From: Coriobacteriaceae bacterium
GTDB taxonomy: Bacteria; Actinomycetota; Coriobacteriia; Coriobacteriales; QAMH01
DNA length: 63,494 nt
Reading direction: 5' to 3'
Assembly: GCA_021203765.1 (NCBI GenBank)
Contig: JAJQAN010000022.1
Span: 1 to 63,494 of the forward strand
Below, piece by piece: positions 12,175-28,330 of the stretch; the first letter of the stretch is position 1; every line of letters starts with the position of its first letter. Both the position numbers and the translations under genes were made by a program. The notes beneath the pieces are model-generated. The model saw nothing but the letters and a program-made list of their open reading frames with translations. It was not told the origin of the DNA and searched no databases.

Positions 12175-12212
12175 GCGATAACACACCCTTTCAAATCGGT
12201 GCGGATTGGAAG

Positions 12213-12251
12213 CCGTACGTCACGTGGAACTAAAAATCACGTGACGTACGG
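12213..12251 (-). terminator. Perfect 14-bp inverted repeat (CCGTACGTCACGTG-N11-CACGTGACGTACGG) immediately after the lipoprotein gene stop
   Basis: Seen directly. It sits between the lipoprotein gene end (12269) and the tig copy-2 start (12174). There is no strong U-tract. Confidence 0.5.
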
Positions 12252-12268
12252 ATTTCCGCTGCTGGTTC

Positions 12269-12871: not shown

Positions 12872-12969
12872 TCCTGTCTTCCCCTCCTTGTTTGTAACGG
12901 ACTGCTTCATTGCCTCATTCCTTTCTCTCGCGCTTTTCTCTGCTCTTCATTTGCATGAGGTGGAATCAT

Positions 12970-14154
12970 CTAATGGTCATAAACCTCCTCTACACCGGTA
13001 AGTGAGCGCACCCGCTCATGAATGGACTTGAGTTGACCAGGCTGGTAGGTCAGTTGGCTCATCTCGTAACGGTCGAAGCCGCCGAGGACGATATCTGCGG
13101 CGCTGACCTCCTTCGAGACGGTCAAAGCGCCTTCATTGCAGATCTCCGTGCAGCAGCGACACTGCACACAGTCTTGCGGGTGATGTTCGATGCCGCACGT
13201 TCCGTCTTCCTCGTCGAATTTGGTGATTGCTCCTGTCGGACAGAACGTGGCGCACATCCGGCATGAGTTGCAGGCATCTGTGTCGATAACGACATGTCCC
13301 CAAAGACGGGTTTCGAGAAACTCTTCGGAAGGGGTTCCGAGCGATTGCAGCGCTTCGATGATGTGCCGGCGACGGGAGGGGATGAAATGCGGCATCGTTC
13401 CATCCTCCATGACCGGGACGTAATGTACCTGTTCGGGTTGTGGTAAGTCGAGCGTTTTTTCCAATGTGTATCCGACGGTCGTGTTGGTGGCATCCTTGAC
13501 GTTCTTGCCGACGTCGAGGAAGAAGTTTCTCTTGCCGACATCATGGTCCTGTCCGCCGGGCAGTTTGCAGAGGGTGGGGAATTTGGGCGTGATGCTTATA
13601 CGGGCGTCATTGTTCCATGCGCGCAGCAGGGTTGTTGCGGTGTCGCAGACCGACTGCGCGACCTTCCTACCATTGTTGAACTGGCAGCCTTCACACGCAT
13701 CGCTGACAAGCACGATACGTTTCGCTCCTAAGCTTGCGAGCATGATCAGCAAGCTCTCCTCGACGCGGCCGAGACAGCGGACGGAAACGATCTTATCGAC
13801 GTCCGCCCGTCCTTCTACCCGGTCGAGTGCATGTTTGCAGGCTATGGTCACCGTGCCTTCTGTAGCCCGCATGACTTCGACGCTGCGCGTGAATAGAGCG
13901 GCGTCGGAGGGATTGTGTGTTTCGAGCGCGCAGGTTGGGCAGACGGTTGCGCATGTTCCGCATCCGATGCAGCGCTCAGGAGATATAACCAGTTCGTTGT
14001 CCTGCATGGAAATACAGCCGGAGGTACAGGCCTCCGCGCATCGGGTACATCCTGCATTCCGATTGCGGACGTTTGCACAGCGATGCTGATAAACGGAAAC
14101 ATATCTGCTTTGCAGCCTGTCGAGTAGCCCGCCGATATTGTCTATGCTAAACAT
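12970..14154 (-). CDS. Cytoplasmic poly-ferredoxin protein: N- and C-terminal 2x[4Fe-4S] domains flanking a Cys-containing middle domain
   Basis: Start at MFSIDNIGG (ATG 14154, RBS GAAGGAG, 4 nt after the upstream stop). Cluster motifs are CTRCAEAC, CIGCGTCATVCP, CNSCRMCATFCP and CVQCRCCTEIC. The middle segment VRCLGRVEESLLIMLASLGAKRIVLVSDACEGCQ resembles MvhD/FlpD-type domains by eye. Confidence 0.8.
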   Translation of the reverse strand: MFSIDNIGGLLDRLQSRYVSVYQHRCANVRNRNAGCTRCAEACTSGCISMQDNELVISPERCIGCGTCATVCPTCALETHNPSDAALFTRSVEVMRATEGTVTIACKHALDRVEGRADVDKIVSVRCLGRVEESLLIMLASLGAKRIVLVSDACEGCQFNNGRKVAQSVCDTATTLLRAWNNDARISITPKFPTLCKLPGGQDHDVGKRNFFLDVGKNVKDATNTTVGYTLEKTLDLPQPEQVHYVPVMEDGTMPHFIPSRRRHIIEALQSLGTPSEEFLETRLWGHVVIDTDACNSCRMCATFCPTGAITKFDEEDGTCGIEHHPQDCVQCRCCTEICNEGALTVSKEVSAADIVLGGFDRYEMSQLTYQPGQLKSIHERVRSLTGVEEVYDH

Positions 14155-14158
14155 ATGC

Positions 14159-15460
14159 TCAACACGCTCCTTCGGCCACCAGGTCTGCTTCAGCTTCGAA
14201 CTCGTTTTCTGTCTGCTCTTCACTCGACGCCTCTGCGGCGGCTTCTTCGACCTCGGCGTCTCCTGTCTGTTCCTCTTCGCCATTCGGGACCGATTCGGGT
14301 TTGTCACAGAACTCCCGTGTGCCCATATCGATATAACGAACGCTTCCATCGTTGAAGATGACGCCCCATACCTCGGCATTTTCAGGCTCGGTCTCTTCGT
14401 TTTCCACATCGTCCTGCGTTTGCTCAGCCTGCTCGAACTCAAACGTCAGCGATTGGGCGGCATCGTTGCTCTCGTCAGCGAGATGCAACGCCTCGACACC
14501 CTGCGTCCGGGACGGCGGCTCCTTTTCGTCTTCTTTATCGGCTTCATCAAGGTCTTCGGAATCGCCGATGTCGCTGCTTTCCGCATTGTCTGCGCTATCG
14601 TCGGTATCGACGGAATCCTCCTCGCTTTCTCCGGTCTCGGTCGGCGCCTCTGCGGCCTCCTTCAACGCCTCGAGTTCTTCGGTCAGCACATCGAAATCGA
14701 TAAAGGGCGCATCGACGCGGGCAACATCGTCGATGTCGAGGAGATCGCTGTTCAACAACTCATAGAAGGTATCGAGAGCTTCTTCCACATCGCCGAATCT
14801 GTTCGTGTCGGTGTTGGCAACGGTCAAAACACAGGTGTCGAAACGCAACTCCAAGCGCTCGAACTGCAAGGCCTGCTTTACCTCGGAGGAGAGGTTGTTC
14901 GGTGCCTCCAGTCTCAGCAGATCGTTCTGAAGATCTTGGACCCGCGTCTTTGTCTGAGGGCGGATTACCTTCTTCCAATTCTGGCGGGCGACCGGATCGT
15001 CCTGTTCCCAGATCGGTCGGCGCAGGATGCTTACGCGCAGTGCCAGGGTCGGCAGAGCCTGAGGCAGTGACCGTATCGCCTCATACATGCTTGCCTCACG
15101 CGTTTTGGGGATGGTGGTGTTGGCCGCTTCCTTGGGACGTTCGAACAGAGGCTCACTCAAAATGCGAGGCAGTTTTCCATGTTCGGTGTCGATGTTTGTG
15201 CGTTCGGTGTTCGGAATGCCGAAGGTCTTGCGCATGGCGAAGGTCTCATCGTGCGTTCGTATCGCTTGTGCGGTGATGAGTTTGCCGAGAGCATTGGTCG
15301 GTTCTTCCGGTTCGACGCTCTCACTCGGCAGTCCATAGTTTTTGATGATGGCATGGCGCGTCGGCGCGCACTTGAACACTCGTGACAAAACCTGCGGCGT
15401 GATCAGATCATCATCAAGTTCTCCGGTTTCAACGATGATGCGAAAGGTCGTGCGTATCAT
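14159..15460 (-). CDS. Hypothetical protein with a strongly acidic C-terminal half
   Basis: The ORF is open to 15514. I prefer the ATG at 15460 (MIRTTFRIIVETG..., RBS GGGAGGA). No motif I recognise. The D/E-rich stretch includes ESEEDSVDTDDSADNAESSDIGDSEDLDEADKEDEKE. It is translationally coupled to the ferredoxin gene. Confidence 0.65.
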   Translation of the reverse strand: MIRTTFRIIVETGELDDDLITPQVLSRVFKCAPTRHAIIKNYGLPSESVEPEEPTNALGKLITAQAIRTHDETFAMRKTFGIPNTERTNIDTEHGKLPRILSEPLFERPKEAANTTIPKTREASMYEAIRSLPQALPTLALRVSILRRPIWEQDDPVARQNWKKVIRPQTKTRVQDLQNDLLRLEAPNNLSSEVKQALQFERLELRFDTCVLTVANTDTNRFGDVEEALDTFYELLNSDLLDIDDVARVDAPFIDFDVLTEELEALKEAAEAPTETGESEEDSVDTDDSADNAESSDIGDSEDLDEADKEDEKEPPSRTQGVEALHLADESNDAAQSLTFEFEQAEQTQDDVENEETEPENAEVWGVIFNDGSVRYIDMGTREFCDKPESVPNGEEEQTGDAEVEEAAAEASSEEQTENEFEAEADLVAEGAC

Positions 15461-15617
15461 CTCATCCTCCCTTTCCCGCATGGTTGTGTAAAAGTCGCTG
15501 CGGTCTGCTTGCATGTCCGAACCGTAACGTTGTCTCGATTCTAGAAAAGGGATTCGGCCGAGGACTAGGTTCGGCTCGCGTGATTTTTTGGAAATACCCC
15601 CTCTTTCGTCCTGCGTA

Positions 15618-15636
15618 ATAGTTCGCCACGAACTAT
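15618..15636. promoter_or_regulatory. Perfect palindrome ATAGTTCG-CCA-CGAACTAT in the divergent intergenic region
   Basis: Seen directly. It lies between the divergently transcribed hypothetical genes (starts at 15460 and 15763). Confidence 0.35.
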
Positions 15637-15762
15637 GTCAGCCCGATAAGAGTCCGTCTGTTTTGCTGAAAATGGCTGATGCGGAACGATTACAGCCAAA
15701 AACGCACTCCCTATCATTCCTCTTGTCCCCAACGTGAAGCGCAGCATTTGGAAAGGGGTTTG

Positions 15763-16746
15763 ATGATCGTGGACTACGAGAAGCAACAATCTCCGAATGG
15801 AATGGCGGGCAGTGGTGCACAGCCGGGCGCCGGTGCTTCGAAGCTACCGTTTTTGTCTCCGGAAGAAGGAGAACGTCAGTTACAGGCGCAGCGCGATGCC
15901 GAGCGTATGACCGACGAAGAATTCGATGCGCTTTGGAAGGAGCTGCGGCAGGATGCGCTCGAAGCCGAAGGACGAGATGATGTCTTGGCGACTTCGGCGG
16001 ATGATCGCTCTGCACTGGCAGAAGACGCACAAGACGACACCGTCGAAGACGCGCAGGAGGACGCTGAGGTCATAGAGGAAGAGGAGCCGGATGAGGAGCT
16101 GACCTTCGACGAGTCCGTCGATCGCCTGATGGACACCGTCAACAACACCCCGCGCTTCCGTGAGATCCTCCGTAAAACACTCGTGTTCTGCCAGACGCGC
16201 CGTATGTTGCGGGAAGTCGAAGACGAAATCCAAACCTATCCGGAATACGAGCAAGCAGCTGAAAATCCTTATCGCCTTATCCGTTACCTCATCGATGGCG
16301 ATGGCTTGTATCGCATCGAGTTGGACGAGGAAGGCGAAGAGGTGACCGCCGATCGTAAGGAAGGGTTGACCGAAGACGAGATAGACGACCTGATCTTTGA
16401 CTTCGCGCTCGAGACAACCCCGGTCGGAGCCGAGGTAGCCAATCGCCTCGCTCCCCATACACGTATCAGAGATCTTCTGAATCTGATGCCTGTCCGTTTT
16501 GACAGCTATGTCAATGTGCTCGAGTTCTGTCAAGAGCCGCGCACCATGAAAGAGATCGACGCGCTGTTTGAAGGCGTCGATATGAAAGCTCTCGGCATCG
16601 TCGGAGCGGACGACTCCATCGCCATACAGCCAAGTGTCTTCGTGGACAAGCTTGAGCGGGCCGGCGCCCTGGTCTGGAAAGGAAACTGGAACCTGACTGC
16701 TGAGGGCAAGGCTTTTTTGGAAACCGTTCAAAAGGCGCGTGCGTAG
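15763..16746 (+). CDS. Hypothetical protein: acidic N-terminal half and two repeated helix-rich modules
   Basis: ATG at 15763 (MIVDYEKQQ..., RBS GAAAGGGG). The internal repeat is VFCQTRRMLREVEDEI versus EFCQEPRTMKEIDALF. Each copy is followed by a winged-helix-like segment (...GDGLYRIELDEEG / ...RAGALVWKGNWNLTAEG). Confidence 0.65.
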   Translation: MIVDYEKQQSPNGMAGSGAQPGAGASKLPFLSPEEGERQLQAQRDAERMTDEEFDALWKELRQDALEAEGRDDVLATSADDRSALAEDAQDDTVEDAQEDAEVIEEEEPDEELTFDESVDRLMDTVNNTPRFREILRKTLVFCQTRRMLREVEDEIQTYPEYEQAAENPYRLIRYLIDGDGLYRIELDEEGEEVTADRKEGLTEDEIDDLIFDFALETTPVGAEVANRLAPHTRIRDLLNLMPVRFDSYVNVLEFCQEPRTMKEIDALFEGVDMKALGIVGADDSIAIQPSVFVDKLERAGALVWKGNWNLTAEGKAFLETVQKARA

Positions 16747-16873
16747 GTTTTATCTGCGGGGCGAACCCTGCATATAAGCGATAAGCGAGCGAGATCGTGT
16801 ACGAGAGATTTGGAGGAAGGGAGTTAACGGCAGCAATGAGTTCGATACAAGGACATGAGGAGGCAAGAACAGT

Positions 16874-19768
16874 ATGGAAAAGCAGACGCTAACACGACGT
16901 ACCTTTGTTGAGCTGGCTACGCTGACAAGCGCTGTGGCGGCTTTTGGCGTTTCATTCGGCTCCAAACTGGAAGAGCGTGAGCAGGCTTATGCGGCATCGG
17001 CACCGGAGCGTCAGGTCTATACCACGGTCTGCCACGGCTGCATCCAGGTGTGCCCGTGCAAGGTCTATGTGGAAGATGGGGTCGTCGTCAAGCTCGAAGG
17101 CCATCCCGATGCTCCCATCAACAAAGGCGGCATGTGCCTGAAGGGACTTGGGCAACTACAGACGATGTACAGTCCACGACGTGTCATTCATCCGCTCAAG
17201 CGTGCGGGCGAGCGCGGCACCAACGAATGGGAAGTTATCTCTTGGGACGAAGCCATCCAGCTCGGCGGCGAGCAGTTTGCAACGGCCATCGAAAAGTACG
17301 GCCCCTATTCTCTCTGGGGCGCTTCCGGTGGTGGCGGCCTTTATGCGTCCGAAATCGCAACGGGCATGCAGTACACCTTCGGCTGCGCCGTCGAGGCCTG
17401 CACCGGCGCACTGCAGTGTTATTGCCCGCGTTCCTCCATCGCCGCTCTGATGTGGTCTGGCTGGAATCAATCGATGGCCGATTCCGCCTGCCTGGAACCG
17501 CTGAACGAGTACAACCCGACCATGGAGGTTCTCGTCGAGTGGGGCGCACAGCCGGCGGTTTCTCAGACTGCACAAAGTGGCCGTGGTGTTGCAGATGCGC
17601 GCAGCGACCGTGGTTTGAAAACCATCGTCATCGATCCGAACATGTCACCCGATGCCGTCAAGGCGGATGTGTGGCTGCCGGTGCGTCCTGGCTCCGATAC
17701 CGCTATGGAGCTGGGTTGGCTGCGCTACATCATGGACAAGAAGCTCTACGATGAGGATTTCTGCAAGTATTGGACCAATCTGCCTTTCCTGATCAACACC
17801 GAGACGAAACTCCCCATCGAGGCCGAAGAGATCTGGCCGGATTACGTCAATCCGTGCATTGACCCGAACGAGGTCTATGACACACCGGCTTACGTGTGCT
17901 GGGATAACTTGACCGGCACCTATCAGCCGTTCCCCTTCTCGGCTCCCGAGGATGCGCAGGTCGATCCTGAACTCTTCAAAGAGGTCAAGATTCCCGAGCT
18001 GGGTGTCAAGGCGAAGACGGCTGGGCAGATCTACTGGGAAGAGGCGGAGCCGTGGACGCTCGAGCATACCGCCGAAATCACGAACGTCCCCGCTGACTTG
18101 ATCGAGGAGGCCCTGGAGCTTTATACCGGTGCCGAGCACGCCGGCATCGCCCATGGCGTCTTCTCGGACATGATGCAGATCAACGGTGAGGTGCCTCTCG
18201 GCTGTCTGGCCATCGATTTCATGATGGGTCATGCAAACCAGCCAGGTGCCACGCTGACGAACCGTGGTGAGGAGTCCCTCTCCACGTCGCGTCCGACCGG
18301 GCCGTACAAGCTGCTTGTCATCTCATACCAGCTGGAGCGCTGGTGGTTCGGTATCAGCTGGACCATCGGATGGACCAAAAAGCAGAATGACAAGAACATC
18401 AAGGAGCAGCTCAAGGAGCTCGGCAAACACAACGACCATCCGGAGCAACGACGCGACCAGATGGCGCAGGCCATCAAAGACCGCCTCGGTGTCGTGCACC
18501 ACAAAGCTGCCCAGTATTGGGAGCAGACAGGTCCCGGCATGATTCGCGAAGCGGTCGAGACCGGCGAGCCCTATCGTCCCAGGCTGCTGTACGAAGTGTC
18601 GGGCAACAAGATGGCGATGATCGCCAACGCCACACAATGGGGCAAGGCCATGAGGGAGAACCTGGATTTCGCGATCCAGCAGTATCCGATGATCACGTCC
18701 GAGACGATCGAATATATCGATCTCTTCTATCCGACGGTCGAATGGCTCGAATACAACAACGGCATCAACCTGACCGTTCAGTGCAACACACAGTGGCTGC
18801 GCCGCTCCGTTGTGCACATCGGCGAAACCGTGCACCCAGAACAGGCTTATACGCTGACCGTCAACAAGTGCTGTGACATCTTGGGCGGATACGACAAGAT
18901 TTTGAGCCATGACTTCGTATACGTGCTCGGCATGTTCGATAACTATGATGAGAAAAAAGCCGAATGGGCGGCCGTGTACGGTGCGCCTTCATGGGACGAA
19001 CTCATCAACAACCAGGACAAGTACTCACCGCTTGTTACGCCCCCGGAGGAGTTCTGGTATTACTACCAGCATGAAAACATCGTAGATGACGGCTTACCGG
19101 CGGGCTTCGGCACCGAGTCACGTAAGATCGAGGTCTACTGCTCGGCCAACATCAAGATGGCCCGCACGGGCTTCCCGTACGTCTATCCGTACGATCTCGA
19201 CCCCTGCGACGACTATCCGGCCATCTGCCAGTATCTCGAAAACGAAGAAAACGCCCTGACCGACACCGAGTACCCGCTCACGTTCACGTCTGGTCGCGTG
19301 CACTACTGGCATCACGGCACCATGCGGCACTGCGCCTTTAACCGCGAACTGCTTCCTGCGCCCGATTGCCGCATCAACCCGGAGACCGCCAAAAAATACG
19401 GTATCGAGCATGGCGACTGGGTGAAGATCACCTCCCGCCGCGGGTCGACGCATGGCCGTGCCTATGTGACCAAAGGCGTTGCACCCGACACGGTGTTCCA
19501 AGAGCGTTTCTGGAATCCGGAATGCTACGACGACACACAAAGGGATCCGTCGAACGGCTGGGAGGAATGTAACGTCAACGTCTTGACCCCCGATACGGCA
19601 CGCTCACGCATGTATGGAGGATCCACGTACCGTGGGTTCCAGGTCAAGATCGAAAAATCCGAGCGCCCGCCGCGCATCTGGGTGGAGCCGGAGGAATTCG
19701 AACCGTTTATGCCGACGCTGCAAAATGAGCCGCTGACGAATGAAGATGAGGTGTTGCCCAATGCGTAG
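16874..19768 (+). CDS. Molybdopterin (bis-MGD) oxidoreductase catalytic subunit, DMSO-reductase superfamily, Tat-exported, substrate unknown
   Basis: 964 aa. The twin-arginine signal is MEKQTLTRRTFVELATLTSAVAAFG. The N-terminal FS0 motif is CHGCIQVCPCK...GGMCLKG. Domain order is MopB-like. RBS GAGGAGG. Confidence 0.9.
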   Translation: MEKQTLTRRTFVELATLTSAVAAFGVSFGSKLEEREQAYAASAPERQVYTTVCHGCIQVCPCKVYVEDGVVVKLEGHPDAPINKGGMCLKGLGQLQTMYSPRRVIHPLKRAGERGTNEWEVISWDEAIQLGGEQFATAIEKYGPYSLWGASGGGGLYASEIATGMQYTFGCAVEACTGALQCYCPRSSIAALMWSGWNQSMADSACLEPLNEYNPTMEVLVEWGAQPAVSQTAQSGRGVADARSDRGLKTIVIDPNMSPDAVKADVWLPVRPGSDTAMELGWLRYIMDKKLYDEDFCKYWTNLPFLINTETKLPIEAEEIWPDYVNPCIDPNEVYDTPAYVCWDNLTGTYQPFPFSAPEDAQVDPELFKEVKIPELGVKAKTAGQIYWEEAEPWTLEHTAEITNVPADLIEEALELYTGAEHAGIAHGVFSDMMQINGEVPLGCLAIDFMMGHANQPGATLTNRGEESLSTSRPTGPYKLLVISYQLERWWFGISWTIGWTKKQNDKNIKEQLKELGKHNDHPEQRRDQMAQAIKDRLGVVHHKAAQYWEQTGPGMIREAVETGEPYRPRLLYEVSGNKMAMIANATQWGKAMRENLDFAIQQYPMITSETIEYIDLFYPTVEWLEYNNGINLTVQCNTQWLRRSVVHIGETVHPEQAYTLTVNKCCDILGGYDKILSHDFVYVLGMFDNYDEKKAEWAAVYGAPSWDELINNQDKYSPLVTPPEEFWYYYQHENIVDDGLPAGFGTESRKIEVYCSANIKMARTGFPYVYPYDLDPCDDYPAICQYLENEENALTDTEYPLTFTSGRVHYWHHGTMRHCAFNRELLPAPDCRINPETAKKYGIEHGDWVKITSRRGSTHGRAYVTKGVAPDTVFQERFWNPECYDDTQRDPSNGWEECNVNVLTPDTARSRMYGGSTYRGFQVKIEKSERPPRIWVEPEEFEPFMPTLQNEPLTNEDEVLPNA

Positions 19769-20351
19769 GACACTCGTTATCAACCTTGACCGCTGTTCTG
19801 GCTGTGACAGTTGCGTGACCGTCTGCAAGTATGAGAACGGTCTACAGCTGGGGGAATATTACAACCGTGTGGTGGCGGTCGGACCGTACGGTGACTTCCC
19901 TCGTGTATCCATGTACTGGCTGCCGATCCAATGCCAGCAATGTGAGAACCCGCAATGCGTGCATGTGTGCCCGACGGGCGCAAGTTATCGCGACGAAAAG
20001 ACAGGCGTCGTTCTGGTCAACGCGGATAAGTGCATCGGCTGCTCGTACTGCATCTACGCCTGCCCCTACGGCGTTCGTTCTTTGAACAAAGAGACGAACG
20101 TCGCACAGAAGTGCACCCTCTGCTCGCAGCTGACAGCAGATGGCAGCGATGTACCGGTTTGTGTGCACAACTGCCCGACCGGCGCTCGCTTCTTCGGAGA
20201 TTTGGATGATCCGGACAGCGAAGCCTCCCAAGAGCTTGCACGCTATGACGACGATTGCATCCACAGCTTGTCGGATCCGAAAAATGCCGGACCGACCTGC
20301 AAGTATATCCTGTCGCCTAAATACGCCGAGTGGAAGGAGATTCACCAATGA
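19761..20351 (+). CDS. 4Fe-4S ferredoxin-type electron-transfer subunit (DmsB/PsrB-like)
   Basis: MRRTLVINLDRCSGCDSCVTVCK, CQQCENPQCVHVCP, CIGCSYCIYACP and CTLC...CVHNCP. The ATG overlaps the catalytic-subunit stop by 8 nt. Confidence 0.9.
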   Translation: MRRTLVINLDRCSGCDSCVTVCKYENGLQLGEYYNRVVAVGPYGDFPRVSMYWLPIQCQQCENPQCVHVCPTGASYRDEKTGVVLVNADKCIGCSYCIYACPYGVRSLNKETNVAQKCTLCSQLTADGSDVPVCVHNCPTGARFFGDLDDPDSEASQELARYDDDCIHSLSDPKNAGPTCKYILSPKYAEWKEIHQ

Positions 20352-21211
20352 ACCTCGATATTCAATGGCCCCTGGTTCTCTTTTCTCTGATTGCCGGTGC
20401 AGGTGGCGCGCTTGCATGCTTCGTAGGCATCTCCGAGCTGATCGGTAAGGCCCGCCAAGCACGGTTCATCGGCATCATCGTGGCGATCATCCTGACGGCG
20501 GTCGGCGGCGCTTTCTCCCTGCTGCACCTGCAGGTACCGCAAAACGTGATGGCGGCTATCACCAATCTCGGGTCCTTTTCGGGCATCTCCCTTGAATTGA
20601 TGATGGTTGGTCTCACGATAGTCATTGGCATCATCTACGCGATTTTGATCAAACGTGATGTCGCCGCGGTCGCTCTGAAGGTGTTTGCCGTGCTGTCCAT
20701 CCTCAGTGGTCTGGTGCTGACCTTTATCTGCGGGCACGGCTACGTCATCGAGTCGCGAGCATTCTGGGATACCGAATTGCTGCCGCTTGCCTATATGGGC
20801 TCGTCGCTGCCCATCGGCGCCTTCCTCTTCTTGGCGATTGCCAAGGGCATGAAGGCCTCTACCGAAGATTTGCGTGGATTTCGAATCTATACCATTGCGG
20901 CGGTCGTTATTTCCGTTGCCTTCCTGGCGGCGTATTTGATCTTCGTCGGAGCCGATGTGGCCGGGCGTAACATCCTGGTCTCCTGGATCGGCGTCCTGGT
21001 CTGCGGCATCGTCGCGGTCATCGTCTTTTTGATCGTGTATTTGCTCAATACCAACACGAAGTCGTTCATGCCGATTGTCTGCATTGCGCTTGCGTTTGCA
21101 ATCATTGGCGCAGGCAGCGTCAGAGTCATGATGTGGGTTGCGAGCGACCCGTATTTCAACGCCTGGTACATCGAGGCGAATGACATCAACATCCTGACGG
21201 ACGATTACTAG
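20348..21211 (+). CDS. Polytopic membrane anchor subunit (DmsC/NrfD-like)
   Basis: 287 aa with about 8 hydrophobic helices. ATGA overlap with the stop of the ferredoxin subunit. Confidence 0.75.
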   Translation: MNLDIQWPLVLFSLIAGAGGALACFVGISELIGKARQARFIGIIVAIILTAVGGAFSLLHLQVPQNVMAAITNLGSFSGISLELMMVGLTIVIGIIYAILIKRDVAAVALKVFAVLSILSGLVLTFICGHGYVIESRAFWDTELLPLAYMGSSLPIGAFLFLAIAKGMKASTEDLRGFRIYTIAAVVISVAFLAAYLIFVGADVAGRNILVSWIGVLVCGIVAVIVFLIVYLLNTNTKSFMPIVCIALAFAIIGAGSVRVMMWVASDPYFNAWYIEANDINILTDDY

Positions 21212-21221
21212 AGCTTGCATG

Positions 21222-21253
21222 TGCAACCGCCCCGTCGATCAGGGGCGGTTGCA
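21222..21253 (+). terminator. Perfect 12-bp GC-rich stem-loop (TGCAACCGCCCC-N8-GGGGCGGTTGCA) between the anchor gene and the TorD-like gene
   Basis: Seen directly 11 nt after the anchor gene stop. There is no U-tract, so it may be an attenuator or RNA-stability element rather than a full terminator. Confidence 0.35.
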
Positions 21254-21334
21254 AGCCGGAGGCCCACAGTGAGTCGCTGCGGGTCTTCGGCTTGCTACAG
21301 AAAGTTCAACGGCAGAGAAGACGGGAGGACGACG

Positions 21335-22111
21335 ATGGCGACCAAGGAAGAAGCAATCGAAATCGTTGAAGCTCGCGCTAGCATGTATGAGACCTTGGCG
21401 AGCTTGTACTTCGACCCCGTAAGCGAAGAACGCATCGAGGCCATGGCGGCGCAGGATTATACGGATTTGCGCAATAATCCGAATGAACTCATTGCAAGCG
21501 GGTTTAACGATATCTACCGTTACCTGCGTAAACGCAATACCGGAACGCGTCAAGAGCTGTCGGTTGATTTTACGTCCTGCTTTCTTGGGATGCACTCGTA
21601 TAAGGGGCTCGTTGCGCAGCCCTATGAATCCCTCTTCTTGGATCCGAGTGGAGAACTGTATGCAGCTCCTCGGAAAGAGGTTCACAGCTTCTACAAGCGT
21701 GAATGCGTCGCGCTGCAGTCTGGCTACGACTATCCGGAAGACCACTTGGCGTTCGAATGCGAGTTCATGTCCATCCTCTGCCATCGGACGTCCGCTGCGC
21801 TCGAAGAAGACAATACGGACGAAGCGCTCCGGCTGCTCGACGTACAGAGCGAGTTCATGGAAGAGCATATCAACCGCTGGTTCCGCCGCCTTCATGACCT
21901 GGCGCTGAAATTTATCAAGACACGTTTTTATCGGGGCGTGCTTGATATCACCCAAGGATTCTTCGACAGCGAACCAGCGTCCATCAGCAACATCTCTGAA
22001 GAGATTACAAAAGGCTTCGAACCTGCTCCTGAAAAAGAGGATGCGGGAGAGGAATCGACGGTGGAGACCAGCAAGCCAGAAGAGGACGCGGCCGCCGAAG
22101 GCGCCGAATAG
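21335..22111 (+). CDS. TorD/DmsD-family redox-enzyme maturation chaperone with an acidic C-terminal tail
   Basis: Start at MATKEEAIEIVEARASMYETLASLYF (RBS GGGAGGA). PEDHLAFECEFMSIL is the typical TorD-family core. Confidence 0.75.
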   Translation: MATKEEAIEIVEARASMYETLASLYFDPVSEERIEAMAAQDYTDLRNNPNELIASGFNDIYRYLRKRNTGTRQELSVDFTSCFLGMHSYKGLVAQPYESLFLDPSGELYAAPRKEVHSFYKRECVALQSGYDYPEDHLAFECEFMSILCHRTSAALEEDNTDEALRLLDVQSEFMEEHINRWFRRLHDLALKFIKTRFYRGVLDITQGFFDSEPASISNISEEITKGFEPAPEKEDAGEESTVETSKPEEDAAAEGAE

Positions 22112-22146
22112 AACCGACACCAATCAAGAGAAAACGAGGTGGCATC

Positions 22147-22812
22147 ATGCCTTCAGCCGAAGATTCCGAAAACAAGGAAGCTGATGAAACGGCGACAGAG
22201 ACGCCGAAAACCTCCGGAATCACCCGCCGTTCGTTTGTCTACGGCGGGGGAGGTATCGTCGCGTTGTTGGCGCTCGGGGGTGTGTCGGTTGCCATCGGTG
22301 ACGACAAGAGCCTGATTAGGCCTCCAGGGGCAAACGAGTCCTCTTCGTTTCTCGCCCAGTGCATACGCTGTGACCGGTGTAGAAGCGCCTGTCCCCGTGA
22401 CGCGATCGGCGTCGCAAAGCTCGGCAGCGGTCTTATGGCGGTACGGACGCCGACGATGGAGTTTCGCAAGGGGTATTGCGACACCTGCGATGGAGATTAT
22501 CTCTGCATCGAAGTCTGCGACACCGGTGCCTTGGGCGCCTTCGATCCTACAACAGACAAGATCGGCATGGCCGTCATCGATGAGGAGAAATGTGAGACCT
22601 ACCTCATCTCCGCATCGTGTGGTCGGGTGTGTATGGATGCCTGTCCTGCAAACGCCTTGGTAGAAGATGAAGAAGGCCGGGTACATGTCGACGAAGATGC
22701 ATGTTGGGGCTGTGGGGCATGCGAGTACGTGTGTCCGGCGAATGCATACCGTGCCTATGACGGCAGCCCAATGCGGGGAGTCAATATCGAACCACTGGAG
22801 CGTGATCTGTAA
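22147..22812 (+). CDS. NapG/MauM-like Tat-signal poly-ferredoxin (four 4Fe-4S motifs)
   Basis: The Tat motif is ITRRSFVYGGGG. Cluster motifs are CIRCDRCRSACP, CDTCDGDYLCIEVC, C...CGRVCMDACP and CWGCGACEYVCP. Confidence 0.8.
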   Translation: MPSAEDSENKEADETATETPKTSGITRRSFVYGGGGIVALLALGGVSVAIGDDKSLIRPPGANESSSFLAQCIRCDRCRSACPRDAIGVAKLGSGLMAVRTPTMEFRKGYCDTCDGDYLCIEVCDTGALGAFDPTTDKIGMAVIDEEKCETYLISASCGRVCMDACPANALVEDEEGRVHVDEDACWGCGACEYVCPANAYRAYDGSPMRGVNIEPLERDL

Positions 22813-23756
22813 TGGCAGAGCAGACGAAAGAAAAACGCACCCGTCCCTATTTGCGCATTCGCACGGTCGTACGTCTTGTCATTCTGGTGCTGATCGCCGC
22901 CGGCCTCATCTTCAATCTCGGCTGGGGGAGCTATTCGAGCGAGGGAATCGGTTTTATCGCAGCCATCTGCCCGCTCGGTGCGCTTGAAAGCATTTTTGGA
23001 AGTTGGGCCTTTGTCCCGCGTCTGATCATAGCCCTCGTCGCTATCTGCATCATCATCTGGTTGGCTGGCAGATCCTTCTGCTCCTGGATGTGTCCCGTTC
23101 CTCCGCTCTCCCGGTTTTTCCGAACGCGTAAGCAGCGTGAGCGCGAAGCGAAGGAACAGTCCGAAGCAGGAATCGTTGCCTACGACCGTTATTGTGAGTC
23201 TTGCAAGGACGGAGACAAGGGATGCCAAGGCGGATGCTCCCACACCAAGACAAAATTCGACTCTCGCACAGCGGTCCTGTGCGGAACGCTCGGATCTGCC
23301 GCGATTTTCGGCTTTCCCGTGTTCTGCCTGATCTGCCCGGTCGGACTGACCTGTGCGACGCTGGTAGCTCTCATGCGCTTCATCGGCTTCAACGAACCCT
23401 CGTGGGGCCTGCTGGTCTTTCCCGTCGTCGTTATCTTGGAGATGACCGTTCTGCGCAAGTGGTGCTCGAAGATCTGCCCGATTTCCGCGCTTATGTCGCT
23501 CATCGGACGTCTCAATCGCACTTTCCGTCCGAAGGTCGACACGGAAAAATGTATCCGGTCAGCCAACGGCGACGCATGCCATGCATGCGCGAGCGCCTGT
23601 CCGGTACATATCGATCCGCACAGCAATCTCGGTTTGGTTTCGACAACCGAGTGTACGCGCTGCGGACACTGCGCCGAGGCGTGTCCGACCGGAGCTATTA
23701 CCTTTCCTTTTATAGCGAGACGAGGACAAAATAAGAGCAAGAAAACTGCTGCTTAG
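22812..23756 (+). CDS. NapH/MauN-like integral membrane iron-sulfur protein (putative quinol dehydrogenase partner)
   Basis: TM helices carry CPLGALE, CSWMCPV, CLICPVG and CSKICPISAL. The C-terminal motifs are CHACASACP and CTRCGHCAEACP. The start shares one nt with the upstream stop (TAATG). Confidence 0.8.
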   Translation: MAEQTKEKRTRPYLRIRTVVRLVILVLIAAGLIFNLGWGSYSSEGIGFIAAICPLGALESIFGSWAFVPRLIIALVAICIIIWLAGRSFCSWMCPVPPLSRFFRTRKQREREAKEQSEAGIVAYDRYCESCKDGDKGCQGGCSHTKTKFDSRTAVLCGTLGSAAIFGFPVFCLICPVGLTCATLVALMRFIGFNEPSWGLLVFPVVVILEMTVLRKWCSKICPISALMSLIGRLNRTFRPKVDTEKCIRSANGDACHACASACPVHIDPHSNLGLVSTTECTRCGHCAEACPTGAITFPFIARRGQNKSKKTAA

Positions 23757-23773
23757 CATTGGAAATGACCAAG

Positions 23774-23856
23774 CTGCGCGTGCTAAGATTGATGGGCGAT
23801 ACCTCGGAGGGACCTGAAGTCAGGATGTAGGTGTTGTTCAGGCAGCGCGTGCTGAG
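23774..23856 (+). repeat. Direct repeat CnGCGCGTGCTrAG (23774-23787 and 23843-23856), 69 bp apart, upstream of the LuxR-type gene
   Basis: CTGCGCGTGCTAAG versus CAGCGCGTGCTGAG, 12/14 identical, read directly. Confidence 0.3.
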
Positions 23857-23900
23857 TGTTGTGCCGCGTGACCGTAGATTTCTATGGTGGGAGGCACGGT

Positions 23901-25586
23901 ATGTCACGCGAGCGGGACTCTTCAGATGTACTGACATTCGGCGGCTTAAGGTTGTCCGCAACCGACTTCATGTTGATTCTCGCCTTTGGGTCGGTCTTCT
24001 CCTTTCTGTGGCTGACCATCAATTACGGGCTCTGCAATCCAACCGAAAATTTCATGACCTTTGATATCGGGGTCATCGCGGCTTTGTGTCTGATGGGTCT
24101 GCTCGCAATCGTCATGTATCGTCGTTTTGAAGCGGTTGCTGCTTTCATTTCCAGACCTTTGTTTTTGCTTGCCTGTAGTCTGGTCTGCGCTGCCTGCTCT
24201 TTTATCCTCGTCTCCCACCTGCTTGCGTCGTCTACCATCGGAACCCTGATTGTCCTCATCGTTTGTATCTGCACGTTTTGTATCCTTTTGTTCCACGTCC
24301 TGCGTGAACTGATCTGTCATATTCGGGAATCGTCGTTTCTTGCGGTCTTGCATGCTTCCCTTGTTCTTTCGTTCATCCTTTATGCTGCCGTTCTTCTGCT
24401 GAACGGGCTCGCAACGAATATTCTATTCGCTGCGCTACCTCTTATTGCCGCTCTTGCCATCGTCGCTTTTTATCGTATGGACGCCTCTTCTGAAAGCCTG
24501 CCAGCGTCCCCGTTTTGGATCTCGCCGCATTCCGTCGTCGCGTCCTCGATCGAAGAGGAAGGAGTAGAGGAACCGCGTGTCGTGGAGGCTGATGAACATC
24601 AAGCGACGTCGCCGCAAACGAGCACCCGTGCGAGAAGAGCCCTCTATAGGATGGCCGTTCTTTTCGGACTTTTCGGCTTCTATGTCGCTTTTGAGCGTCT
24701 GTGGATGATCGAGACAACAAGCTGGAACTCAGAGCAGTTCCTCACCGGAGCGTCATCAGCGCTGGCCATCTTGGCAATCCTTGGACTTGTAATCTTGGTT
24801 GCTATCGCCTGTAACACGACTCTGCGCTTTGTGCATGCCTATTACATTATCGGGGGTTTCGGTCTCTGTTTTGCGCCGATGATTATCGTTTTGACGGGCG
24901 TCAATTTTGAACCGGTCCGTATCATCGAAGACGGTTCTTATGCACTGCTGATGCTGTCGGCCACCTATGCGATGTTTTCCTGTGTGCATCGCCACCGATT
25001 GCAGCCGGACAAGGTCATTGCCATTTCGACCGGCATCGCCTGTCTTGGTGTCGCCGCGGGATGGGGCGCGCAACTCATCATCCTCGCTGTGCGGAACGGC
25101 GTCGAACTTGACACGGTGTATATCCTCGCTCTGACCTTCATCGTATTGGCCTATTTCCTCTTCGGCTTTTCTCCCGATGCTTACAACCAACTGATAGTGG
25201 GGGCTCTTCCCTCGGAGAATGTGACCAATGCAGGCACTTGCAACAGCACTGACCGTGCGCCGCGTTCTGCTCCTGCTGATGATGCGAATCAGGCATCTGG
25301 AGAGGGGCAGTACGGCCATGTCACTTTCAAGGAGGCCGCTGAGAGTTTGGCGCAAAAGAGCGACCTTTCAAAGCGGGAGACCGAGATACTGTTCCACATG
25401 ATCAAAGGTCACAGCGATCAGCGCATTGCCGACGAGCTGACGGTCAGCTACCACACCGTGCGCTCCCATGTCCGTCATATCTATACCAAAATGGATGTGC
25501 ACGATCGCGAGAGTCTGCTCGATGCCATTGCAGAAGAACAGGACAACTCCCAACCAGACGCCCCCGCCACTTCCTCCAGGGCATAA
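23901..25586 (+). CDS. Membrane-embedded LuxR-family one-component transcriptional regulator
   Basis: About a dozen hydrophobic segments are followed by the C-terminal HTH SKRETEILFHMIKGHSDQRIADELTVSYHTVRSHVRHIYTKMDV. ATG at 23901 with RBS GGGAGG. Confidence 0.85.
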   Translation: MSRERDSSDVLTFGGLRLSATDFMLILAFGSVFSFLWLTINYGLCNPTENFMTFDIGVIAALCLMGLLAIVMYRRFEAVAAFISRPLFLLACSLVCAACSFILVSHLLASSTIGTLIVLIVCICTFCILLFHVLRELICHIRESSFLAVLHASLVLSFILYAAVLLLNGLATNILFAALPLIAALAIVAFYRMDASSESLPASPFWISPHSVVASSIEEEGVEEPRVVEADEHQATSPQTSTRARRALYRMAVLFGLFGFYVAFERLWMIETTSWNSEQFLTGASSALAILAILGLVILVAIACNTTLRFVHAYYIIGGFGLCFAPMIIVLTGVNFEPVRIIEDGSYALLMLSATYAMFSCVHRHRLQPDKVIAISTGIACLGVAAGWGAQLIILAVRNGVELDTVYILALTFIVLAYFLFGFSPDAYNQLIVGALPSENVTNAGTCNSTDRAPRSAPADDANQASGEGQYGHVTFKEAAESLAQKSDLSKRETEILFHMIKGHSDQRIADELTVSYHTVRSHVRHIYTKMDVHDRESLLDAIAEEQDNSQPDAPATSSRA

Positions 25587-25667
25587 AAGACGTATACCGC
25601 TGCGCTGGGACCTGTCCTCGAATAGGGGATCGGTCGTAAGTCGGGCGTACGTGAACGGCGAGAGATC

Positions 25668-26330
25668 TTACTGTGCCTTGGCCTCTTCGATCTGGTCGGC
25701 CAACCACTCGACCCAGGCGTCGACCCCGTCTCCGGTGGTGGAGGAGAGCGGGAAGTACGGCGCGGTCGGGTTGAGCTGCTTGATGCTGTCAGTGAAGGCA
25801 TCCGTGGAGAAGTCGAAGGCCGGCAGGGTGTCGGTCTTGTTCAAGATGATGGCCTGCGAGACCTGGAAGATGCCCGGGTACTTAAGCGGCTTGTCGTCTC
25901 CTTCCGGGACGGACAGGATCATGATCTTTTTGTCTTCGCCGAGGTAGAAGTCGGTTGGGCAGATCAGGTTGCCGACGTTTTCGATGAAGATGAGGTCGAT
26001 CTCGTCGAGGTCGAGCACATCGAGCGCGCGCTTGACCATGTCGGCCTCCAGATGGCAGGCGCCGCCGGTGTTGATCTGCACCGCCGGGATGCCCTCCTCC
26101 TTGATGGCGACCGCGTCCACGTCGCTTGCGATGTCACCTTCGATGACCGCGATCTTGTAGCGGTCGCCCAAGGCGTGGATGGTCGCCAGGATCACCGAGG
26201 TCTTGCCGGCTCCCGGCGAGGCGAGCAGGTCGACGGTATAGACCTGTTTTTCCTTGAGCAGCTCATGGTTTTCCTGGGCGAGGCGATCGTTTTTGTCGAG
26301 AATCTTCTGCTCCAGATCGATCTGCGCCAT
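25668..26330 (-). CDS. hypB: Hydrogenase/urease nickel-incorporation GTPase HypB
   Basis: LLASPGAGKTSVI P-loop, GGACHLEA and ENVGNLICP. TGATG coupling with hypA. Confidence 0.92.
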   Translation of the reverse strand: MAQIDLEQKILDKNDRLAQENHELLKEKQVYTVDLLASPGAGKTSVILATIHALGDRYKIAVIEGDIASDVDAVAIKEEGIPAVQINTGGACHLEADMVKRALDVLDLDEIDLIFIENVGNLICPTDFYLGEDKKIMILSVPEGDDKPLKYPGIFQVSQAIILNKTDTLPAFDFSTDAFTDSIKQLNPTAPYFPLSSTTGDGVDAWVEWLADQIEEAKAQ

Positions 26331-26698
26331 CACGAGCCTCCCTCTTCGTCCGGTGTGTCAATCTCAATCGACGCGATGTGCAGGTCGCGCCCTTCGATGA
26401 GCCTGCAACCGACAGCTCCGCAGTTCGGGCAGGTCATGTGGAAGCGGTCGTGCTCGAACTCGAGGCCGCACTCCTTGCAGACCGAGCGCGGTTTGATGAA
26501 GTTCATGTTCAGCTTCGCTCCCTCGAAGAGCGGATCGTCTTCGCAGAGCACTCCGAACGCGAATTCCATGACATCCTCGATAACCTCGGTCATCTCACCG
26601 ATGTCGAGGTTGACGGCGACGACCTTCGTCGCATGGTTCTCTTCGGCGACCGGCCTGACGGAGTCCATGACGCTCTGCATCAGGCTGAGCTCATGCAC
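26330..26698 (-). CDS. hypA: Hydrogenase nickel insertion protein HypA
   Basis: MHELSLMQ N-terminus and the zinc site CKECG...CPNCG. The GTG start overlaps the tatC 3' end by 8 nt. Confidence 0.9.
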   Translation of the reverse strand: MHELSLMQSVMDSVRPVAEENHATKVVAVNLDIGEMTEVIEDVMEFAFGVLCEDDPLFEGAKLNMNFIKPRSVCKECGLEFEHDRFHMTCPNCGAVGCRLIEGRDLHIASIEIDTPDEEGGS

Positions 26699-27497
26699 TG
26701 GCTGCGACCTGCTGTTGTGGCTGCTGTTGCTCCAGTGCGCTCCCTGCCTCTTCCTGCTTCTGCCGCGCGATCTTTTTGTTGAGCGCGATGCGTGCGGCGG
26801 CCAAGGCGACCTCGTAAAGGGCGACGAGTGCGGCGAACATGATGATCATCGTGACGGGAGAGGCATCGGGTGTGACGACGGCCGCGACGACCATGAGCAC
26901 GATGTAGACGATGCGCCAGCTGTGCCGCAACTTCTTGTACGGCACGATGTCGAACAGGATGAGGTAGAAGATGACGAGCGGCAGCTGGAAGGCGATGCCG
27001 AATGCCAACAGGAAGAGCTCGACATAATGCAGGTAGTCGCTCGCCTGCGGCATGACGTCGCCGACCGAATAGCCCTCGCCGGTAAGCCACTGGAACGCCG
27101 GGCCGAGGCAGAACATGTAGCAGAAGACCATGCCCAACGCGAAGAGGAAGACCGCGATGGCGAACGTCGGCAGGACGTAGTGGCGTTCCTTGGGCTTGAG
27201 CGCCGGAAGGAAGAAGGCGAGCAGCTGCCAGAAGATGACCGGACTCGCGGCCACGACCCCGGCAAAGAGTGCGACGCGCAACTTGACGGAGAAGCCTTCG
27301 AAGGCGCCGATGACGATAAGGGTGCCGTCATCCGGCAGATATTGCGATATCGGCTGTTCCAAGAATTCCACGAGTTGCGGGGCAAGCATGTAGAAGACGA
27401 CGGTTGCAACCAGGACGCAGACGACGATGACGACCAGACGGCGGCGGAGTTCGCCGATATGATCGAGCAGGGGCATACGCGCAGGACCGATGGGCAT
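26691..27497 (-). CDS. tatC: Twin-arginine translocase subunit TatC
   Basis: 268 aa. MPLLDHIGELRRRL and six hydrophobic helices. Confidence 0.92.
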   Translation of the reverse strand: MPIGPARMPLLDHIGELRRRLVVIVVCVLVATVVFYMLAPQLVEFLEQPISQYLPDDGTLIVIGAFEGFSVKLRVALFAGVVAASPVIFWQLLAFFLPALKPKERHYVLPTFAIAVFLFALGMVFCYMFCLGPAFQWLTGEGYSVGDVMPQASDYLHYVELFLLAFGIAFQLPLVIFYLILFDIVPYKKLRHSWRIVYIVLMVVAAVVTPDASPVTMIIMFAALVALYEVALAAARIALNKKIARQKQEEAGSALEQQQPQQQVAASA

Positions 27498-27499
27498 GC

Positions 27500-28330
27500 T
27501 TACTCACCGCCCTTCGCGCTCTGCCGTGCAGGGGGTTTCGCCGCCGATGTCTTGGGTGCTGCCGTCTTTGTGCTGCTCTTCTTCGGAGCAGCGGAGCCGG
27601 CGGCCGCCTTCTTGGGAGCAGTCTGCTTGGAAGCGCCCTGTTTTGCGGCACCGGATGCGGATGCGCTCTTCTTCGAAGCGGTCTGCTTGGATGCCGCCTT
27701 CTTTGCAGCGGTCTGAGCAGTCGAAGATGGAGCCGTCTCCTTCTTCGGGGCGCTCTTGGCGGCGGAGGGCTTCGATGCCGACGCCTTCGGAGAACTTGGC
27801 TTTGCGGCAGCGTCGCTCTTGGTAGAAGCTGGTTTTTCTGTCGCGGAGGCCTTGTTGCCTGCGTCCTTGTTCTTGGAATCGAGCCCGTAGAGGGAGGCTG
27901 CGAGGTTTTCGCTGGACTGCTTTTCCTTCTCCTCCATCTTGACCTTTTTGAGTGTCCGTTCGGCCGATTCCGGCTCGCGTTTGCCGGTAAACGTCTCCTT
28001 CATCCCGCTCATGTTGAACGGGTCCTTGAACATGTCCTTGGTCTCGTTCAGTGTGGAGTTGATGGAGGCGATGTCTTCGCTCAGAGGCGCAGCTTGCTCT
28101 TCGATGGAGTCCTTGACCGGCTCCATGGTCGTCATGAAGGGATCGTAGACTTCTTCCTTGATTTTCTTGTTGGCCTCTTCTGAAGCTGTTCTGAATTGAC
28201 GAATCGCGCGACCGACGGTGCGGCCCACCTGAGGCAACTTCTCCGGGCCAAAGATCAGGAAACCGAAGAAGAGTATGAGGATCAACTCAGTGCTACCAAT
28301 ACCAAACACGGTACTACCCTTCGCACACAT
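27500..28330 (-). CDS. tatA: TatA/TatB-family translocase subunit with a long K/A/S/P-rich C-terminal extension
   Basis: The N-terminus FGIGSTELILILFFGFLIFGPEKLPQVGRTVGRAIRQF is canonical. An alternative GTG start lies at 28309. The tail reads AAKPSSPKASASKPSAAKSAPKKETAP...AAKKAASKQTASKKSA... Confidence 0.85.
   Translation of the reverse strand: MCAKGSTVFGIGSTELILILFFGFLIFGPEKLPQVGRTVGRAIRQFRTASEEANKKIKEEVYDPFMTTMEPVKDSIEEQAAPLSEDIASINSTLNETKDMFKDPFNMSGMKETFTGKREPESAERTLKKVKMEEKEKQSSENLAASLYGLDSKNKDAGNKASATEKPASTKSDAAAKPSSPKASASKPSAAKSAPKKETAPSSTAQTAAKKAASKQTASKKSASASGAAKQGASKQTAPKKAAAGSAAPKKSSTKTAAPKTSAAKPPARQSAKGGE

Follow-up and report, generated by a model that had tools for sequence, protein, structure and literature searches.

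An orphan Tat-exported molybdoenzyme cassette of Coriobacteriia in which a DmsC-like subunit and a NapGH-like pair tend to be inherited together

We have analysed a window of 63,494 nucleotides (nt) from contig JAJQAN010000022.1, by which we mean the whole stretch of DNA introduced above, for a cassette of genes coding for a molybdenum (Mo) oxidoreductase and its partners. A preliminary description of this DNA had placed six genes between positions 16874 and 23756, and had read them as an enzyme exported by the twin-arginine translocation (Tat) pathway and served by two different membrane modules for electron input. Six + strand open reading frames (ORFs) are confirmed at exactly those positions, and their motifs and subunit assignments are borne out by the sequence, by Pfam and by motif reading. 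What does not stand is the extent, which was drawn too narrowly: a gene upstream, here called up355, and a LuxR-type gene downstream belong to the same cassette, so that the functional unit is larger than first stated and runs from approximately 15618 to 25586. The genes of the cassette are overlapping or closely spaced, with ribosome-binding sites (RBSs) present, and the tight coupling of the first three of the six, A, B and C, can be read directly off the sequence: A and B overlap by 8 nt (ATGCGTAG), B and C by 4 nt (ATGA). The last two, coding for a NapG-like and a NapH-like protein, share 1 nt.

Gene A (16874-19768, + strand like every gene of the cassette) encodes a catalytic subunit of 964 amino acids (aa). 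Its Pfam scores for Molybdop_Fe4S4 (40.8 bits), Molybdopterin (49.8 bits) and Molydop_binding (71.9 bits) all pass the respective cut-offs of 22.7, 24 and 26.8, and by this domain content A is a catalytic subunit of the DMSO reductase superfamily, with a Mo or tungsten bis(molybdopterin guanine dinucleotide) (bisMGD) cofactor. At the N-terminus the Tat motif reads TRRTFV, with AYA as a plausible cleavage site; then comes the motif for the FS0 iron-sulfur cluster, C53-x2-C56-x3-C60...C88, whose four Cys are invariant in an alignment of 12 homologs. Identification of the Mo ligand by alignment, as had been proposed earlier, leads to Cys182, whose counterpart is the ligand Cys in PsrA, in NapA and in acetylene hydratase, and which also aligns with the Cys in the QICKGPR motif of the Eggerthella lenta dehydroxylase Dadh; we regard Cys182 as the putative Mo ligand of A.

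Subunit B (19761-20351) is a four-cluster ferredoxin (Fer4_11, 90 bits; four Cys motifs), 33.5% identical to E. coli DmsB; it has no signal peptide and would be exported together with A. Subunit C (20348-21211) is a DmsC/NrfD-like membrane protein of 287 aa, which is also the length of E. coli DmsC. Both its score against Pfam DmsC (PF04976; 27.1 bits, cut-off 22.3) and the 8 transmembrane (TM) segments predicted by hydropathy place it in that family, while a BLASTP comparison of C with E. coli DmsC detects no similarity.

The remaining genes are conveniently described with reference to the dadh cluster of E. lenta, in which DadhABC are accompanied by D, with a helicase domain, by E, a hypothetical protein, by F, which is TorD-like, and by the membrane ferredoxins G and H (Dong 2025, PMC11887054). 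The gene after C (21335-22111) encodes a TorD/NarJ-family chaperone of the DadhF type (Nitrate_red_del, 91 bits), whose most likely start is the ATG at 21335, with the RBS GGGAGGA in front of it. Two further genes follow. The first (22147-22812) encodes a NapG-like poly-ferredoxin of the DadhG type, which has a Tat signal (TRRSFV), a single hydrophobic segment at the N-terminus and motifs for four clusters; its identity to E. coli NapG is 35.5% over 183 aa (E = 2e-21). The second (22812-23756) encodes a NapH-like membrane Fe-S protein of the DadhH type, which aligns over its full length with E. coli NapH (25% identity over 310 aa) and keeps the two CX3CP and the two C-terminal 4Fe-4S motifs. 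The pair thus has the Tat signal, clusters, CX3CP motifs and TM segments that characterise the NapGH quinol dehydrogenase. It does not have the scores of a true NapGH: against the NCBIfam equivalog models the NapG-like protein reaches 76.9 (cut-off 269) and the NapH-like protein 78.8 (cut-off 234), just as the chaperone reaches 75.8 against NCBIfam TorD (cut-off 132). Pfam annotation of the window covered its larger ORFs, and there are no nap genes among them.

Three Cys of the NapH-like protein, C53, C172 and C175, are conserved without exception among Coriobacteriia NapH-like proteins (37/37), and equally so in alignment A3. They belong to CPLG and CLxCPxG motifs; the corresponding residues of E. 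coli NapH are D, E and N. The three Cys may constitute an additional metal or redox site, within the membrane or close to it. A further four-Cys insertion, CESCKDGDKGCQGGC (residues 128-142, positions 23193-23237), lies in a predicted cytoplasmic loop and is kept in 0 to 8 of the 37 homologs; as it is not conserved, it is not treated here as functional.

Upstream of A, up355 (15763-16746) encodes a conserved cytoplasmic protein, annotated as hypothetical, whose N-terminal part is acidic and whose C-terminal core measures approximately 215 aa. It has no match in Pfam or NCBIfam, its homologs are all from Coriobacteriia and all unnamed or 'hypothetical', and its AlphaFold2 model, though confident (predicted local distance difference test 84.7), gives no significant Foldseek match in the PDB, the best (E = 0.08) being to MarR/PadR-like winged helices. 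A hidden Markov model of the up355 family does match (E = 2e-14) an ORF that, next to a cadh-like gene in locus L164 of our collection, directly precedes TorD-NapG-NapH. From its place in the cassette, up355 would be an accessory protein of the DadhE type; to equate it with DadhE itself is to rely on gene position.

At the other end of the cassette, 23901-25586 encodes a LuxR-type activator with a C-terminal GerE helix-turn-helix (51.5 bits) and 11 hydrophobic segments by hydropathy. This is the architecture of the adjacent regulators of Eggerthella-type systems (DadR, HcdR, CadR), in which LuxRs with 10-12 TM segments are substrate-specific activators of dadh, hcdh and cadh (PMC9734109). In front of up355 a conserved box, AAAATGGCTGATnnGGAACGAT (15669-15690), covers an ATG at 15679, for which reason the start of up355 is placed at 15763 or 15769. 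Approximately 41 nt upstream of this box there is a perfect 8-3-8 palindrome, ATAGTTCGccaCGAACTAT (15618-15636, strandless). The box is kept in three related loci, each of which has, at equal spacing from it, a different 8-3-8 palindrome, ATCACTCGctaCGAGTGAT (L001, 1288-1306; L002, 8600-8618; L085, 1555-1573); palindromes are mildly enriched upstream of up355-family genes in general (p = 5e-4). A palindrome that varies at fixed spacing is the pattern expected of operators co-varying with private LuxR regulators, and we consider 15618-15636 a candidate operator of the adjacent TM-LuxR.

The distribution of the cassette was studied in 80 genome loci, collected via alignment of A homologs, in which 85 cassettes were counted. 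The gene string up355-A-B-(C)-TorD-(NapG-NapH)-LuxR recurs over these loci, in Slackia, Adlercreutzia, Eggerthella, Gordonibacter, Denitrobacterium, Parvibacter, Raoultibacter and termite-gut Coriobacteriales, with up355 present in 77 of the 85 cassettes, TorD in 74 and LuxR in 71. Genomes hold several paralogous cassettes, each with its own LuxR; at one locus (L050) three of them lie within 23 kb. The contigs of L001, L002 and L045, whose cassettes are typical of Coriobacteriia (74% identity to A), are binned as Methanomethylophilaceae archaeon, Eubacterium sp. CAG:786 and Alistipes onderdonkii, labels that are probably binning errors.

In the cassettes with complete context C and NapGH go together: 24 have both, 18 have neither, 2 have C only and 3 have NapGH only (Fisher p = 7e-8), and two of the last three seem to borrow the pair of a neighbouring cassette. 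Since the loci are related to one another, changes were also counted on the A tree, where the most parsimonious history of C has 8 changes, that of NapGH 9, and that of the two scored as one character 12; at least 5 events therefore altered C and NapGH jointly. The pair is kept even where it has moved, as in some cassettes it is found upstream of up355 rather than downstream. A metagenome survey seeded with NapH-like proteins gave 20 loci that extend for 7 kb or more to either side; in all of them (20/20) C, NapG and an A-type subunit occur within 9 kb. The same survey recovered true E. lenta hcdh loci (L126, L140, L159; hcdh approximately 2440 bits) with the order hcdh-B-C-NapG-NapH, whose NapH-like protein is approximately 40% identical to that of the window, and a cadh-like region with an up355-family ORF, TorD, NapG and NapH at one end. 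Taken together, these loci and the 20/20 count indicate that the NapGH-like pair is a dedicated accessory of this group of Coriobacteriia molybdoenzymes.

The combination of a DmsC-like anchor with a NapGH-like pair, which had been described as unusual, is thus found in most related loci, and it is not new: it has been published for dadh, hcdh and cadh of E. lenta, where DadhG and DadhH resemble NapG and NapH by Foldseek and the hcdh and cadh clusters hold similar accessory genes (PMC11887054).

How the two membrane components cooperate is a separate question. The preliminary description took them as a branched electron input. In such a scheme C, as a quinol oxidase of the NrfD/DmsC type, and NapGH would be independent and parallel routes into B, and the outcome would be redundancy or the use of different quinones or donors. 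DmsABC-type and NapGH-type modules are each known alone as electron-input modules in proteobacteria, and five discordant cassettes of our collection have one of the two only. Experiments on dadh in a Gordonibacter host speak in part for this scheme, because deletion of dadhC (like that of dadhI) leaves Dadh activity intact, as redundancy predicts; redundancy should equally tolerate the loss of dadhG or dadhH, yet loss of dadhB or of any of dadhD-H, these two included, abolishes activity (PMC11887054). A system in which the NapGH-like genes are essential and the anchor is dispensable is not what parallel routes would give, nor is the joint gain and loss of C and NapGH seen here. AlphaFold3 places DadhG/H against both B and C (PMC11887054). 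In view of the co-inheritance, the published deletions and these predicted contacts we favour one single module made of C and the NapG- and NapH-like proteins, and we consider two independent branches unlikely.

Between the structural genes and the accessory genes the DNA has a peculiar feature. Right after the stop codon of C there are two GC-rich hairpins (21222-21298, + strand), recognised as inverted-repeat arms with no U-tract behind them: the first has a perfect 12-bp stem (21222-21253), the second 25-nt arms (21248-21298). The 123-nt spacer between C and TorD folds at -67.3 kcal/mol (z = -5.5). Hairpins of unrelated sequence occur at the matching place in five other loci (L001, L002, L003, L083, L085), such that the position is conserved and the sequence is not. 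Over 61 cassettes of the family the strongest hairpin within 110 nt downstream of the C stop codon has a median of -29.7 kcal/mol; the medians for comparison are -22.4 after TorD (p = 2e-8) and -18.8 within the coding region of A (p = 6e-17). A scan of the cassette for terminators and promoters gives nothing above chance; it missed the hairpin after C because it demands a T-run. A search of 15400-25800 against Rfam with E-values up to 1 has no match, hence no Mo cofactor riboswitch or other known RNA. The hairpins probably mark the boundary between structural and accessory genes, and could act as an actinobacterial-type terminator or attenuator, or as a 3' stabiliser. Such a boundary fits the RNA-seq of E. 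lenta hcdh, in which the accessory genes are more weakly induced: log2 fold change is 10.3-11.2 for A, B and C, and 6.3-8.3 for TorD and the ferredoxins.

From the hairpin one may go further and suppose that TorD-NapG-NapH is a separately transcribed, possibly constitutive unit shared by several Mo enzymes, including those of cassettes with A and B only. The hairpin stands exactly at the boundary where such a unit would begin, the hcdh data show the corresponding step in expression, and 18 related cassettes have neither a C nor a NapGH of their own. Cassettes of the bare form up355-A-B-TorD-LuxR are seen at L004, L009, L017-L019, L021-L024, L029, L039-L049, L053, L058 and others; modules held in common, with genes at other places in the genome, may serve them. 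A precedent exists in the cadh region of E. lenta, where one constitutively expressed accessory set serves five dehydroxylases (PMC11887054). Against sharing, the promoter scan finds no promoter-like site in the C-TorD spacer, the accessory genes of hcdh are still strongly co-induced, and the annotated part of the 63-kb window (its larger ORFs against Pfam) contains a single Mo enzyme. Moreover the Cadh accessory genes are unable to support Dadh, which means that accessory sets are cluster-specific (PMC11887054). On balance a shared unit is a serious but not the likeliest explanation, and a module dedicated to A, B and C remains our preferred one.

As to the enzyme itself, A was compared with Dadh, Cadh, Hcdh, acetylene hydratase and PsrA, taken from the eLife 2020 alignment, and with DmsA and NapA of E. 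coli. In phmmer comparisons run at equal database size A scores 199 bits with Dadh, 192 with Cadh and 164 with Hcdh, and at most 107 with Psr, Dms, acetylene hydratase and Nap; since the former scores are approximately twice those of Psr or Dms, the Eggerthella dehydroxylases are the best-scoring characterised relatives of A. The BLASTP identity with Dadh, Cadh and Hcdh is nevertheless only 25-31%, in partial alignments. In neighbour-joining trees with 200 bootstrap replicates the A homologs form one large clade (200/200), and Dadh, Cadh and Hcdh a separate one (200/200); the method gives no supported deep position for the A clade among Dadh, acetylene hydratase, Psr and Dms. For this reason A, which by tree and identity lies outside the clade of characterised dehydroxylases, is not filed as a catechol dehydroxylase. 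The phylogenetic test suggested earlier, of whether A falls in a characterised group with this same gene set, thus has a double outcome: the gene set is shared, and A is orthologous to no characterised enzyme.

A could alternatively be a classical reductase for a simple acceptor (polysulfide, thiosulfate, tetrathionate, DMSO, sulfoxide, arsenate or selenate) that was recruited into the accessory framework of Coriobacteriia. Its top NCBIfam match is PhsA and its top solved-structure match is T. thermophilus PsrA (103.5 bits), the Cys ligand lies in a Psr-like C-x-x-P-R motif, and E. lenta is known to respire sulfoxides by means of unassigned tungstate-sensitive enzymes (bioRxiv 10.1101/2022.12.26.521950). 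These likenesses do not amount to membership: all 22 NCBIfam equivalog matches of A are below cut-off, by 3- to 20-fold and with PhsA the best at 187 against 694 bits, and no whole-protein score exceeds the curated cut-off for PhsA, PsrA, TtrA, DmsA, ArrA, NapA or Fdh. The A clade groups with Psr in 0/200 bootstraps, the scores of the Dadh type are twice those of Psr or Dms, and a radiation into many paralogs with private TM-LuxR sensors is typical of enzymes for organic substrates. Recruitment of a simple-acceptor reductase is accordingly a quite improbable account of A. We argue instead for a specific organic substrate, on the grounds that genomes with numerous paralogous cassettes, all equipped with a sensor of their own, point to substrates that are organic and diversified.

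The earlier statement that A is an orphan for which no substrate can be named stands, given that all equivalogs are far under cut-off and the nearest characterised enzymes are 25-31% identical. Five signature peptides of the A clade are absent from the supplementary alignments of eLife 2020, the signature motifs occur in none of the supplement files of JACS 2025, a literature search found no published characterisation of a member of the clade, and a plasmid tblastn for annotated outgroups returned generic 'molybdopterin-dependent oxidoreductase' names only. The urolithin-forming Eadh enzymes were considered as relatives and rejected, because they are of the Gordonibacter type (two-subunit) and belong to a different clade. 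A is a genuine orphan in a large uncharacterised clade.

These results can be brought together as follows. We think it probable that the locus is a substrate-inducible cassette for a respiratory-type reductase, of the kind known from the catechol dehydroxylases of E. lenta, in which C and the NapGH-like pair form one composite membrane module. The multi-TM LuxR would sense an external small molecule, the substrate, and activate a promoter upstream of up355, with the palindrome at 15618-15636 as its candidate operator. From what is known of the family, A would be matured in the cytoplasm, where the TorD-like chaperone, and probably up355 too, would assist the insertion of Mo-bisMGD and FS0; the Tat system would then export A to the outer face of the membrane, with B riding along. 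There A-B would dock on a single module composed of the DmsC-like C, the NapH-like protein and the Tat-exported NapG-like protein. Electrons may leave menaquinol by way of NapH/NapG (with C), pass the four clusters of B and FS0 in turn, and arrive at Mo at Cys182, where an organic substrate would be reduced or dehydroxylated outside the cell.

Several observations weigh against this interpretation. The FS0 spacing of A is CxxCxxxC and that of Dadh CxxCxxxxC, and a sister grouping of the A clade with Dadh, Cadh and Hcdh appears in just 46/200 bootstraps (23%); with A outside that clade and its deep position weak, the chemistry need not be catechol dehydroxylation. The scanned flanking ORFs contain no helicase domain of Pfam that would reveal a gene of the DadhD type, although no direct search with the DadhD sequence was made. 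The Fe-S clusters of E. coli NapH face the cytoplasm in the accepted topology, and electron transfer from NapH to the exported NapG is then hard to explain mechanistically. The 18 cassettes devoid of both C and NapGH are presumably functional. Given the hairpin after C, expression of TorD-NapG-NapH may differ, or be separate, from that of up355-A-B-C. Finally, none of the public sequencing runs that were searched has the region, and no public contig encodes the exact A protein. As to the helicase, a 766-aa ORF beside the accessory block of L164 was inspected as a possible DadhD-like gene and discarded: by eye its sequence resembles a Tat-signal flavin reductase rather than a helicase, and the window contains no homolog of it.

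The architecture of the cassette is, then, already known, and only its substrate side is new, apart from three details: the hairpin after C, the palindromic candidate operator, and the three extra invariant Cys of the NapH-like protein. A bolder proposal, which we offer as no better than tentative, is that the A clade, with its paralogs in Slackia, Adlercreutzia, Eggerthella, Gordonibacter and termite-gut Coriobacteriales, has a reaction other than catechol dehydroxylation and works with a new composite electron-transfer module as its partner. The parts of that module may include the DmsC-like subunit, the NapG/NapH-like pair with its three extra Cys and possibly a polyferredoxin with an FlpD domain, and electrons may be drawn across the membrane from cytoplasmic donors besides menaquinol. 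If this were true, the reaction of the A clade would define a new class of respiratory electron acceptors in the gut. The matter has a wider bearing, as Eggerthellaceae hold tens of orphan molybdenum reductases that influence what becomes of dietary polyphenols, neurotransmitters and drugs in the gut. With its own TM-LuxR sensor and candidate operator the cassette makes its substrate findable by a reporter screen, and the published Gordonibacter host can be used for expression; the joint inheritance of C and NapGH and the hairpin at the boundary bear on the question raised by the 2025 study, that is, by which route electrons reach extracellular enzymes.

The polyferredoxin just mentioned belongs to an operon that diverges from the cassette on the - strand. 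It is a cytoplasmic protein of 394 aa with an FlpD/MvhD-like domain (12970-14154; Pfam Fer4 and FlpD), accompanied by an acidic ORF of 451 aa with no known domain (14159-15514) and by a lipoprotein-like ORF of 213 aa (12269-12910). Homologs of the polyferredoxin lie beside or inside cassettes in L002, L006 and L035, and directly after NapH in the hcdh-like loci L146, L158, L161, L162 and L163; judging from this neighbourhood, it is a possible accessory protein of the cassette. On the other side, immediately downstream of the LuxR gene, the - strand (25668-28330) encodes a HypB-like GTPase, TatC and a long TatA/B protein with a Lys/Ala/Ser-rich tail, so that export machinery and a hydrogenase maturation gene adjoin the Tat-dependent reductase.

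The GC content over the cassette and its neighbours (8000-26000) is 0.54-0.60, against 0.60-0.67 in the flanks, and the AT skew is negative at 8-16 kb and 20-26 kb and positive over the A gene (16-20 kb). This shift in composition could indicate an acquired island, or a plain compositional bias of these genes. The window as a whole is chromosomal: among its genes are those for GroEL and topoisomerase I, for two trigger factors, for a TsaD fusion and for the adjoining TatC and TatA. The trigger factors are tandem paralogs on the - strand (9375-10670 and 10882-12186), each with Trigger_N and Trigger_C, and the fusion (693-3041) is a protein of 782 aa that joins a TsaD domain to a GNAT acetyltransferase domain, RimI-like by our interpretation of the GNAT match. 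An origin from Coriobacteriia had been assumed and agrees with our data: the window GroEL is 97% identical to one protein and at most 84% identical to all others, its named matches, at approximately 80%, are proteins of metagenome-assembled genomes of Coriobacteriia, and the homologs of A all belong to Eggerthellaceae/Coriobacteriales. The source is an uncultured Coriobacteriia lineage.

We may finally compare the cassette with the systems it resembles. Acetylene hydratase (P. acetylenicus, PDB 2e7z), which has been reported as the closest characterised relative of the catechol dehydroxylases outside that group, has the position of the Cys ligand in common with A. It differs in being a monomeric, cytoplasmic and non-redox enzyme, and at 89.5 bits it scores below Psr and Dms against A. 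With DmsABC and PsrABC the locus shares an A-B-C operon with translational coupling, a DmsB-like B, a C of the DmsC family with 8 TM segments and a ligand motif of the PsrA type; unlike them, it has an A that lies under all curated cut-offs and a C that is co-inherited with an additional NapGH-like module.

NapGH, the quinol dehydrogenase of periplasmic nitrate reductase, is found in W. succinogenes as well as in E. coli. The likeness of the present pair to the E. coli proteins consists in the Tat signal and four clusters of the NapG-like protein and in the two CX3CP and two 4Fe-4S motifs of the NapH-like protein. The partners are different: the larger ORFs of the window include no NapA, NapB or NapC and no cytochromes, and the pair is accompanied by DmsB-like and DmsC-like subunits. 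Moreover, the NapH-like protein of the window has the extra invariant C53, C172 and C175.

The closest parallel is provided by the catechol dehydroxylase clusters of the Eggerthella type (Maini Rekdal 2020, PMC7028382; PMC11887054). These share with the cassette a Tat-exported bisMGD subunit A, a four-cluster B and a DmsC-like C, together with a TorD-like chaperone, a NapG/NapH-like pair, a hypothetical accessory protein and a neighbouring LuxR with 10-12 TM segments. What sets the cassette apart from them is its gene order, with up355 in front of A, and A itself, which belongs to a separate clade at 25-31% identity and has the FS0 spacing CxxCxxxC in place of CxxCxxxxC.

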